NCBI GenBank assembly: GCA_026134085.1
Contig: JAOQIN010000015.1
Span: forward strand, 1 to 38,708
Reading direction: 5' to 3'
From: Candidatus Methanoxibalbensis ujae
GTDB taxonomy: Archaea > Halobacteriota > Syntropharchaeia > Alkanophagales > Methanospirareceae
DNA length: 38,708 bases
Part shown: positions 1-20,590 of the stretch, piece by piece
Layout: each line of letters starts with the position of its first letter
How positions within the stretch are numbered: position 1 is the stretch's first letter
The notes under the pieces: generated by a model
Databases searched by the model: none
Seen by the model: the letters and a program-made list of their open reading frames with translations, nothing else
Told to the model about the DNA's origin: nothing
Position numbers and translations under genes: made by a program

Positions 1-239
1 ATGGGAAGGGATAAGAGTTAAGCTTGTTTCTCCTAGAAACACATCTAAGACATGCCATCTCTGCGCAAGGTTTGAGAACCGATGCAACTTTCTTTTGCGA
101 ACATTGCCAACACACCTACAACGCAGATTTCAATCTGCGAACATTGGCATTAGGGCGACGCTCCCTGATGCCAGAGGGTGCGTAAACCACCCCGTAGGTC
201 TTATGACCTATAACCCCGCGAAAGCTGGGAGTAGTTTAC
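1..239 (+). mobile_element. tnpB: IS200/IS605-family remnant: frameshifted TnpB C-terminus plus right end/omegaRNA scaffold (truncated by window start)
   Basis: Three successive frames read WEGIRVKLVSPRNTSKTCHLC / FFCEHCQHTYNADFN / SANIG, matching the TnpB zinc ribbon and RuvC-III (NADxNAAxNI). Hairpins follow and the element ends ...GGGAGTAGTTTAC at 239. Confidence 0.85.
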
Positions 240-8250: not shown

Positions 8251-8292
8251 GCGCTCTAATCTCTGCGCTCTAATCTCTGCGCTCTAATCTCT
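8251..8292. repeat. 14-bp tandem repeat x3 (GCGCTCTAATCTCT) spanning the AIM24 stop codon
   Basis: Three perfect copies read directly. Confidence 0.9.
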
Positions 8293-9256
8293 GAAGAGAG
8301 TGCCGATGTTGAAGGAAGTGCCGGAAGTGCCTGAGGAACCACTGCCGCTGCCTGCGCCTGAAGGCATGAATGGTCTGAGAGCGGCTGCGAGGTTAGCAAG
8401 TGTCATTGACTGGAGAAGCACACGACCGGGGCCTCGCAAGGTTGTGAGGAATATGCCCTCTCCGCCGAAAAGCATGCTCTTCACATTTCCTGCGAGTGCG
8501 ATGTCATACCCAACGGATGCGTCAAAGCCGACAACACTGCCCGTGTCAACCTTCACGACCTCACCAGATGCGAGTTCCATCTCAATGAAATCGCCGCAGG
8601 CGTGAATGAATGCTGTGCCCGTGCCGCTCAATCGCTCAGGAATGAAGCCCTCTCCGCCGAAGATGCCTGCACGCAACTTCTTCGTGAAAGCGATATCCAG
8701 GTCAACGCCCTCTTGAGCGCAGAGGAATGCGTCCTTCTGTGCGATGAAATCCTCGCCTTTCAACTCTATCGCCTTTATTCTTCCGGGAGCATTCCCTGCA
8801 AAAGCGACAAAGCCCTCCCCGAAACGGGGCGTGAATTCCGTCAGGAAGAAAGTCTCTCCTGCGAGCTTACGCTTCAATCCTTTGAGAAAACCCCCTCTCG
8901 CCCTCGCATTTATCTTATCACCCCGCTGGAGACCCCTTTGAGGTCGGGGAGGAAAGTGGTAATTTTTAAATACTCAAAATTTCACCTACTTATAGCGTCC
9001 GGAGGTTCCGGGCGATGAAAGCGTGAAGCTGGCACGCATCGGGGCGACGCTCCGAGGTGTGGGGCTGCGTAAACCAGCCCTTGCCCGACGACCAGCAGGA
9101 TGAAGGCATAAAGCCCCGTGAGGAGGGGCAGTTTACTTCCATGTTCTCGCTCATGTAAACCATCGCTCCCGCCTCTCCATACACCATCTCGCCCGCTGAA
9201 AGACGCACTACCACCATCTGCAAGTTGTCTCCAACAATTTCATATCTCATTCCCAT
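8284..9256 (-). pseudogene. AIM24/TIGR00266 family gene interrupted by a 223-bp insertion
   Basis: The 5' part (YEIVGDNLQ..EAGAMVYMSENME, 9256-9137) and 3' part (INARARGGFLKGLKRKLAGETFF..FGGEG..GPGRVLLQS, 8913-8284) rejoin in frame when 8914-9136 is removed. Confidence 0.92.
8914..9136 (+). mobile_element. Non-autonomous IS200/IS605 mini-element (left-end hairpin, TATA box, omegaRNA scaffold)
   Basis: Inserted 3' of TTTAT with no target duplication. CCCCG..GACC..GGTCGGGG left hairpin, TTTTTAAATA at 8963-8972. Shares GGGCGACGCTCC, a CGTAAAC-loop hairpin and terminal AGTTTAC with the tnpB end at 150-239. Confidence 0.88.
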
Positions 9257-9305
9257 ACCTCCTCTTTCTCCTGTACCTCCCCTTCCACTCCTTTATCCAT
9301 TCCAT

Positions 9306-9520
9306 GTGACCTCCTCCAATGTGGCATCGGTGAGGGGAGCGGCGATGGGAGGTTCCTCAGCCGCCTCATGACCTGACGCCATTGGATGTCCCATCTCCAC
9401 CCAACAGAAGAGTGAGCTCACACCGTCCACACCGTCTTTCTGCGACGGGTCGTCCGGCGATAAAACCAGCTCTCTCAGCCTTGCGGGTTGCGAAAGAACT
9501 CAAGTGCGAGCATCTGTTAT
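9306..9520 (-). mobile_element. Probable orphan IS200/IS605 right-end/omegaRNA remnant (GGTCAC-ending family)
   Basis: Minus strand ends GATGCC..GGAGGAGGTCAC and contains GGAACCTCC as in the 4408 and 10641 copies. GC-rich non-coding stretch; far boundary approximate. Confidence 0.45.
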
Positions 9521-15389: not shown

Positions 15390-15464
15390 GGGCCCGTGGC
15401 TCAGCATGGACAGAGCACCGGCCTTCTAAGCCGGGGATCGCGGGTTCAAGTCCCGCCGGGTCCG
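15390..15464 (+). tRNA. tRNA-Arg(TCT), copy 1
   Basis: GGGCCCG/CGGGTCC acceptor stem, CCGGC-CT-TCT-AA-GCCGG anticodon arm, GTTCAAGT T-loop. Confidence 0.96.
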
Positions 15465-20515: not shown

Positions 20516-20590
20516 GGGCCCGTGGCTCAGCATGGACAGAGCACCGGCCTTCTAAGCCGGGGATCGCGGGTTCAAGTCCCGCCGGGTCCG
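20516..20590 (+). tRNA. tRNA-Arg(TCT), copy 2 (identical to copy 1)
   Basis: 75/75 match to 15390-15464; TTTATCTTAAA box about 25-33 nt upstream. Confidence 0.96.

Follow-up and report, generated by a model that had tools for sequence, protein, structure and literature searches.

The window, by which we mean the whole stretch of 38,708 nucleotides analysed here (contig JAOQIN010000015.1 of Candidatus Methanoxibalbensis ujae, assembly GCA_026134085.1), carries a 223 bp protein-free element inserted within a gene of the AIM24 family. [quoted passage not shown] Alignment of the copies shows the predicted RNA to be conserved and covarying across dozens of independent insertions. Judged from sequence, the RNA has the 3′-end position, the homology to the RNA of a tnpB element and the conserved covarying structure of a TnpB omegaRNA. 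The element and the interrupted gene are arranged as follows.

8914–9136, plus strand: protein-free IS200/IS605-type element (PATE, subfamily A), whose flanks are contiguous in the related genome G009
8909–8913, plus strand: pentamer TTTAT at the position of the target and TnpB target-adjacent motif (TAM); the family norm and the empty allele of relatives are TTCAT
9137–9256, minus strand: N-terminal 40 codons of the AIM24-family gene, ending in ...MSENME
8284–8913, minus strand: C-terminal 209 codons and stop of the AIM24-family gene, starting with INARARGG

Insertion into an AIM24-family gene

The inserted block starts with CTTATC and ends with GTTTAC. Once the 223 bp are removed, the N-terminal and C-terminal parts of the gene share one reading frame, as had been foreseen, and they match positions 1–36 and 39–205, respectively, of the Pfam AIM24 profile. 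In G009, the closest relative found, whose AIM24 protein is 94% identical, the two flanks are adjacent at L022 2115|2116 with no base extra or missing (GCATTCAT|TTCCATG). This comparison makes the boundaries of the element unambiguous and reveals no target duplication, which confirms the coordinates and the precise insertion described in the original prediction. The same empty allele with TTCAT was found on contigs of public sequencing runs, from co-occurring strains; the runs containing the locus are vent or marine-sediment metagenomes, or are coded, and no RNA run was found among those listed for 8700–9350.

The open reading frames within the element are only read-ins from the flanks; it is too short for a transposase and has no gene of its own. 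AIM24 homologues are present in 20 of 31 related genomes, and the gene is dispensable, since it is missing from the other 11. It also looks lost rather than switched, because diverged haplotypes share the insertion and the gene is frameshifted in one of them.

The PATE family and its target motif

The PATE family comprises protein-free IS200/IS605 derivatives of 176–246 bp. The host genome (86 contigs, 89% complete) contains the exact 223 bp sequence as a single copy, and siblings of 176–204 bp with the RNA core and the GTTTAC end were found at C12:6299-6502, C67:19330-19505 and from C62:5900 to the contig end, together with matching fragments at the starts of contigs C76 and C63. Two PATEs were found in G009. 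A metagenome search with a pattern of two conserved blocks taken from PATEs, by which diverged parents would be missed, returned 36 loci, all of which are matched by R1, a covariance model of the mini-elements. Thirty-one loci have enough upstream sequence and all have one layout (a CAT-ending pentamer, a hairpin left end, a TATA box, an RNA region of about 145 nt, a right-end hairpin and (T)AGTTTAC), the other five being cut by contig ends. No tnpB lies in front of the RNA at any of the 36 pattern-found loci. Two of the loci, L194 and L192, are copies of subfamily A at other sites, which brings this subfamily to three sites including the window. Evidently, the family has moved, with PATEs at 26–28 distinct junctions.

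The junction pentamer could be read in 29 rows, which represent these 26–28 distinct junctions, as two sites occur twice and two rows have a common left flank. It is TTCAT in 23 rows, CTCAT in two, ATCAT in two, TACAT in one and TTTAT in one; it thus ends in CAT in 28 of the 29, and the sole TAT belongs to the copy in the window. Counted genome-wide, the 223 bp sequence is accompanied by at least three siblings, and junctions other than that of the window lack TTTAT. Therefore, TTTAT does not hold as the family motif that the original prediction had made of it. Insertion 3′ of a short conserved target without duplication, a mark of non-autonomous IS200/IS605 elements, is nevertheless found, the conserved target across the family and the lack of duplication by comparison with the empty site of G009. 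All contigs with the element have TTTAT, with no difference listed at 8911, and the empty allele in G009 and on run contigs has TTCAT. The simplest reading is that the element inserted at TTCAT and a C-to-T change followed; insertion into a variant allele could also have produced TTTAT.

BLAST with the element gave matches in 2 of 66 genomes of the host's family, and the R1 model detected the RNA in 2 of these 66 and in 2 of 79 genomes of the class. A contig scan with a 16-mer listed at least 111 stretches, and the best R1 score over 80 of these loci was 14.5 bits (E 0.12), which is chance level.

Several irregular copies were observed. L184 and L189, and likewise L174 and L172, have one flank in common and the other different, which could reflect recombination between copies or assembly chimeras. 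At C56:37130-37230 there is a solitary remnant resembling a left end, partly duplicated in tandem and not followed downstream by a tnpB, and a left end of the sibling type runs off the contig end at C8:1-140.

Element ends and promoter

The following features were recognised at the two ends of the element.

8914–8926, plus strand: left-end terminus CTTATCACCCCGC, resembling the 3′ end of 16S rRNA, with an outward-facing Shine-Dalgarno-like complement
8931–8949, plus strand: left-end subterminal hairpin by direct reading, CCCC (8933–8936) with GGGG (8946–8949), or alternatively GACC with GGTC
8950–8972, plus strand: purine-rich stretch and TATA box (TTTAAATA at 8965–8972), a predicted archaeal promoter
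9113–9129, plus strand: right-end hairpin GCCCC-GTGAGGA-GGGGC, with three of five pairs covarying across copies
9131–9136, plus strand: right-end terminus GTTTAC, common to the tnpB-bearing parent elements

Folded as DNA, the two end hairpins are no better than shuffled DNA (z 0.13 and −0.01, from the single sequence). The right-end hairpin is supported by its covarying pairs across copies. For the left-end hairpin, a reading of the sequences points to the match between its stem and that of the right end: the left and right stems match each other as CCCC/GGGG here and as CCACCC/GGGTGG in the G009 copies, and likewise in other subfamilies. The hairpin that had been proposed for the left end is thus upheld by its stem match, though not by its fold.

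The host genome encodes a TATA-binding protein and the methyl-coenzyme M reductase alpha subunit, the two marker families checked, and therefore an archaeal TATA-type promoter is the right model for the element. The TATA box placed at 8963–8972 is indeed present (TTTTTAAATA) and is conserved at a fixed distance: an octamer TTTAAATA with at most one mismatch lies 31–44 nt upstream of the loop of the RNA 5′ hairpin in 24 of 29 copies, and in 22 of these 24 the spacing is 34–39 nt. From the position of the TATA box and the usual archaeal spacing between TATA box and transcription start, transcription is predicted to start at about 8994–8996.

The parent element ISX

Contig L175 carries a PATE and a full-length ISX of about 1.3 kb, 750 bp apart, and the ISX contains a single tnpB of 407 codons and no tnpA, and has TTCAT as its target. 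Comparison of the two found that their left ends are identical for the first 28 bases and that identity resumes across the TATA box (TTAAATAT) and extends as far as the tnpB ATG, which it includes; the right-end hairpin and the TAGTTTAC terminus of ISX are also the same as those of the PATE. These shared ends, together with the lack of a gene of its own, support the earlier assignment of the element to the protein-free IS200/IS605 derivatives. The RNA region of the PATE begins at the position of the old tnpB ATG, and therefore the PATE promoter is the parent tnpB promoter moved beside the RNA. The promoter once ascribed to the element itself thus stands as far as its conserved TATA box goes, and its origin lies in the full-length parent, whose tnpB promoter has become fused to the predicted omegaRNA region.

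The Pfam TnpB zinc-ribbon domain was found at 16 places in the host genome. Right ends of ISX, ending in GGGAGTAGTTTAC, are located at six contig ends (C3, C25, C46, C16, C24 and window 1–239), and N-terminal halves 74–75% identical to the L175 TnpB at four others (C1, C9, C22 and C67); TTCAT precedes all four ISX left ends in this genome. ISX is thus multicopy here and interrupts the assembly at no fewer than ten contig ends. The copy in the window is as follows.

1–239, plus strand: right end of ISX, cut by the contig end, with a frameshifted tnpB remnant, ending in GGGAGTAGTTTAC

The copies in the window and on C3 have a common frameshifting deletion between two CxxC motifs, and on C25 and C46 the reading frame stays open across the C-terminal motifs. 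The ISX TnpB matches solved TnpB/Cas12f chains, and in the alignment to a Cas12f chain its GVDLG, SLEDL and ADFNAS align to the same motifs, of which the D, E and D positions are, we take it, the three catalytic carboxylates. Close homologues (E <= 1e-50) were found in one of 401 sampled phylum genomes, namely this one. Beside metagenome PATEs, ISX was found at 1 of 38 loci, and none of the 36 pattern matches is a full-length element with the PATE-type RNA motif.

Matches to the Y1 transposase TnpA were found in 35 of the 66 family genomes, and the best in the host genome is a stump of 75 codons. The original prediction had called for both TnpA and TnpB in trans. The TnpB half is supported by a multicopy tnpB family of cognate type, which has the ends and the target motif of the PATEs, and for the TnpA half an intact Y1 transposase was not found in this genome. 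An IS605-like element of another family, at C5:8500-9900 (L018), has an intact tnpB of 387 codons and a Y1 tnpA truncated to 75 codons, which keeps its HUH motif and lacks the C-terminal part.

The predicted omegaRNA

The RNA region and the adjoining flank contain the following features.

8994–9136, plus strand: predicted omegaRNA scaffold, matched by the covariance model at 134 bits
8997–9013, plus strand: 5′ hairpin specific to mini-elements, with the strongest covariation (four of seven pairs changed on both sides)
9039–9055, plus strand: middle hairpin, in which the pair 9041–9053 is changed from G-C to A-U in L195
9069–9074, plus strand: GUAAAC, the predicted pairing partner of the terminal GUUUAC at 9131–9136; it is invariant, so that the pairing is unproven
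9137–9156, plus strand: right flank, the predicted guide of a read-through omegaRNA (guide length inferred), identical to the intact gene of G009

The 147 nt from 8990 have a minimum free energy of −64.3 kcal/mol (z −3.1). A structure was obtained with RNAalifold on the 43-row alignment to the R1 model: 96.7% of paired cells can pair, against 24–45% with the partners slid, cells with double changes number 59 against 13.2 in shuffles and fall in eight pairs, and the covariation score was reached by none of 500 shuffles, although these counts lean to the model, as the alignment was fitted to it and the structure came from the same sequences. A further UGCC/GGCA pairing never varies and is unproven. 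The R1 match ends at 9136, the last base of the element, and likewise at the last base in all copies.

An RNA-like region homologous to the 3′ end of tnpB had been noticed within the element, and this homology proved real but modest. R1 weakly matches the 3′ ends of ISX, with 23 bits (E 2.4e-4) on L175 and 17.8 and 10 bits in this genome, the 10-bit match being that in window 1–239 (E 0.018 in a 3 kb search). Between the element and the tnpB 3′ end in window 1–239, modest similarity was found, with the shared blocks GGGCGACGCTCC, GCGTAAACCA and AGTTTAC. The 3′ two-thirds of the PATE and ISX RNAs are homologous; the 5′ part cannot be aligned, being coding in ISX and occupied in PATEs by the PATE-specific hairpin. 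The right flank likewise agrees with a guide aimed at the empty allele, as had been suggested: in the intact gene of G009 it has a perfect match adjoining the canonical TTCAT.

At the Rfam gathering threshold the window matched 5S rRNA and tRNAs only, with no match for the element; the best weak matches, Transposase-2 RNA (11.8 bits, E 6.9) and snoU82P (9.5 bits, E 4.9), are at chance level. Two GATGA motifs, at 9014–9018 and 9099–9103, are conserved in nearly all aligned PATE RNAs, and a kink-turn or protein-binding role is possible for them. A box C/D sRNA, considered for the two invariant GATGA motifs, was rejected as unsupported, the Rfam match being at chance level.

History of the copy in the window

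The same insertion was found in two diverged strains, L168 (about 2% diverged) and L195 (same site, 6–7% diverged), and we regard it as old because these strains share it. The window and L168 differ at 53 positions in 2592 nt, with none in 8866–9275, a 411-nt tract centred on the element; the next largest difference-free gap is 204 nt. For this one haplotype pair, the probability is about 0.006 for the 411-nt gap and about 0.008 for the untouched element, and one run contig of the L168 haplotype has one difference inside the element. Such a tract may result from a recent event in which the occupied allele was converted or transferred, an outcome expected of homing. Compared with L195, the window shows like divergence in the element (9 of 149) and in the gene flank (8 of 116), and in L195 both members of the pair 9041–9053 were replaced after insertion at the site, G-C giving way to A-U. 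A 2-nt deletion at 8815–8816, found both in the L168 haplotype and on a contig from run X5, frameshifts the C-terminal part of the AIM24 gene. At the sequence level, then, the insertion is old, the gene is decaying in one haplotype and the RNA stem has been kept paired.

In the contigs of four DNA runs, which drop rare variants, no excised TTTAT|TTCC allele was seen. The sole joint across the element and all loose ends at its junctions carry TTCAT. The joint contig, which was considered as an excision product, has five other letters in the 83 of its left arm in addition to TTCAT, and was therefore attributed to a related strain.

Proposed mechanism and alternatives

These data lead us to propose the following course of events. 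The element entered the AIM24-family gene right after the five-base target, without duplication, and within it the tnpB promoter of its parent lies directly before a structured RNA of about 143 nt that ends at the right-end boundary. The promoter would fire at about 8994–8996 and give an omegaRNA with a 3′ end reading into the flank (TTCCATGTTCTCGCTC...). TnpB encoded by ISX would bind this RNA in trans and cut gene copies without the element, and repair from an occupied copy would restore the element, which would thereby home or be retained. To reach new sites it would depend on a Y1 TnpA, which was not seen in the assembly. The window copy is probably stuck, because it has TTTAT, is common to diverged strains and lies in a gene that is decaying in one of them.

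Several observations weigh against this proposal. The assembly of this genome contains no complete ISX copy, and two of the ISX right ends are frameshifted; the Y1 transposase (PF01797) has three matches at two loci here, all truncated or with stops, and G009 has no TnpA match. G009 has two PATEs, and its assembly, which is 79% complete, shows no ISX-type tnpB, the best match being 42% identical. The 5′ half of the mini-element RNA is unlike the ISX RNA, and the diagnostic motif was found next to tnpB at 0 of 36 loci; as the 5′ halves differ and the motif is found in protein-free elements only, recognition of the PATE RNA by the ISX TnpB is an assumption. The covariation counts have the leaning described above. 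Finally, the TTTAT of the window departs from the CAT of 28 of 29 junctions, so this copy may be neither excised nor cut.

The age and state of this copy bear on two other explanations. It could be an immobilised fossil, a formerly working PATE that is now inert and whose RNA, if made, does nothing. This would agree with TTTAT in place of the family TTCAT, the failure to find an intact TnpA, the single copy of subfamily A in the genome, the insertion common to haplotypes about 2% and 6–7% diverged and the 2-nt deletion in the C-terminal part of the gene of one haplotype. We consider it unlikely, since the promoter and RNA are intact in the window copy, a stem pair in the 6–7% diverged copy changed on both sides and is still paired, and the element and near flanks are unchanged in the haplotype about 2% diverged. 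A reversible switch, in which excision and re-entry would turn the AIM24 gene on and off in the population, was part of the original prediction, and would draw on the scarless excision of IS200/IS605 elements (described in PMC10055086) and on the reading frame restored by removal of the 223 bp. We now hold it to be very improbable: all contigs and loose ends with the empty allele have TTCAT together with further differences, as a related strain would, and none has TTTAT, so that the search for an excised allele in the run contigs, which drop rare variants, was negative; the insertion is old; TnpA was not found; and the gene, absent from 11 of 31 related genomes and dispensable, has a frameshift in one haplotype.

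Two further explanations concern the landing sites of the family. The left-end terminus of the family, AATCACCACCGC (CTTATCACCCCGC in the window), resembles the 16S rRNA 3′ end of this genome, GGATCACCTCCT, and its complement is the Shine-Dalgarno-like GGTGGTGATT, directly before the ATG complementary to the TTCAT target. Nine of the 26–28 distinct junctions (L181, L175, L178, L201, L191, L194, L196, L185 and L197) fall exactly on a start-like ATG, defined, in the rebuilt empty site, as one followed by 50 or more codons and preceded by no more than 15 open codons, compared with 8.5% of 8495 ATGAA sites in the genome (binomial p about 4e-4 for n = 28). Part of this enrichment could be due to survivorship alone. 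The RNA and left end might then serve another role, as a regulatory small RNA or as a portable 5′ region, the latter an outward Shine-Dalgarno sequence and perhaps a two-way TATA box that keeps a neighbour gene expressed once the element has inserted at its start codon; that G009 keeps PATEs without a detectable ISX tnpB would agree. We find this quite improbable, because the RNA shares homology with the 3′ end of a tnpB element and stops exactly at the right-end boundary like omegaRNAs, start-codon enrichment can come from selection removing in-gene insertions, and the junction codon in the window is ATA inside a gene, where no such service is possible.

A bolder extension, which we put forward tentatively and judge to be the less probable outcome, is that the mini-elements are more than deletion debris and form a long-lived RNA-only selfish lineage, with their own omegaRNA variant and a TnpB borrowed from ISX, landing on start codons with a new ribosome-binding site. 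They would land exactly on start codons because TTCAT complements ATGAA and the left-end terminus mimics the 16S 3′ end, and most insertions would then be harmless. The omegaRNA variant, with its extra covarying 5′ hairpin, would be driven by the captured tnpB promoter, and the 411-bp identity tract would be a conversion tract of homing between chromosomes or strains.

Elsewhere in the window, tRNA matches at 15390–15464 and 20516–20590, about 5 kb apart, have identical scores and may represent a duplicated segment.

Significance and comparison with known systems

For the window itself, the finding is mainly a well-documented ordinary mobile element that killed a dispensable gene. More broadly, it is a natural archaeal case of modular IS200/IS605 organisation, in which the parent gives TnpB and a commoner protein-free lineage gives a promoter and a predicted guide RNA, and vent communities contain both occupied and empty alleles of the gene. 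Should the RNA be made and used, TnpB-driven retention in trans could be studied in archaea at this locus, which would also show the effect of a one-base change in the target motif on excision and cutting. The compact TnpB of 407 aa, the TTCAT motif and the two natural scaffold variants may also interest engineers of small nucleases.

[quoted passage not shown] However, they have terminal inverted repeats and usually target duplications, and the element has neither; identity as a MITE was rejected, because CTTATCACC... and ...GGCAGTTTAC, the two ends, are not inverted copies of one another and the target is not duplicated. The ISX TnpB is a sequence relative of the TnpB in the ISDra2 TnpB-omegaRNA complex (PDB 8exa and 8h1j, among others; E 4.8e-8), and a scaffold followed by a flank-derived guide is the architecture expected for the window element. 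Identity to ISDra2 is about 30% or less, and the scaffold of the window is unrelated in sequence and belongs to no Rfam family. The target motif also differs, being TTCAT here, whereas the TAM of ISDra2 is TTGAT.

Non-coding RNA from the 3′ end of archaeal tnpB elements (sotRNA/omegaRNA) is expressed (PMC4615843, PMC12558985). These IS1341-type elements are tnpB-only, as is the ISX parent, and their RNA overlaps the coding end of tnpB, whereas in the window PATE the gene is gone and the RNA has a fused promoter. A PATE with IStron ends appears in a 2023 preprint (10.1101/2023.11.20.567912).

PATEs were defined in 2011 in the archaeon Haloquadratum walsbyi (Dyall-Smith et al., PMC3119063). Like the present family, those elements have no transposase, no terminal inverted repeats and no target duplication, carry near-terminal palindromes related to IS605-type (IS1341-type) elements, and outnumber their parents, some having arisen by core deletion; they are mobile though the IS200-type transposases are mostly pseudogenes. 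In contrast to the PATE studied here, their hosts are haloarchaea and their sequences are unrelated, and that work, which predates omegaRNA, describes no guide-RNA or promoter content.

In IS200/IS605 elements, TnpA excises without scar, TnpB with its omegaRNA cuts the TAM-flanked donor joint, and recombination restores the element; PATEs "often encode omegaRNAs", which are used in trans by the TnpB of other elements (Meers 2023, PMC10055086). PATEs encoding omegaRNAs that need TnpB in trans are thus already published. No report on the window PATE family or on ANME-1 PATEs was found in the open-access literature. The PATEs of Geobacillus stearothermophilus (PMC10055086) resemble the window PATE in having no protein gene and in sharing their ends with tnpB-bearing elements, and the homing logic is alike, with the TAM and flank forming the target at the empty donor joint. 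The window PATE differs from them in its archaeal host, in a TATA box inherited from a leaderless-type tnpB promoter, in a diverged RNA that has a 5′ hairpin of its own and was found, among the elements sampled, only in protein-free ones, and in having no TnpA partner identified and being known from sequence alone. The fusion of promoter to RNA, the PATE-only RNA lineage and the pattern of start codons and ribosome-binding sites go beyond the published descriptions consulted here.

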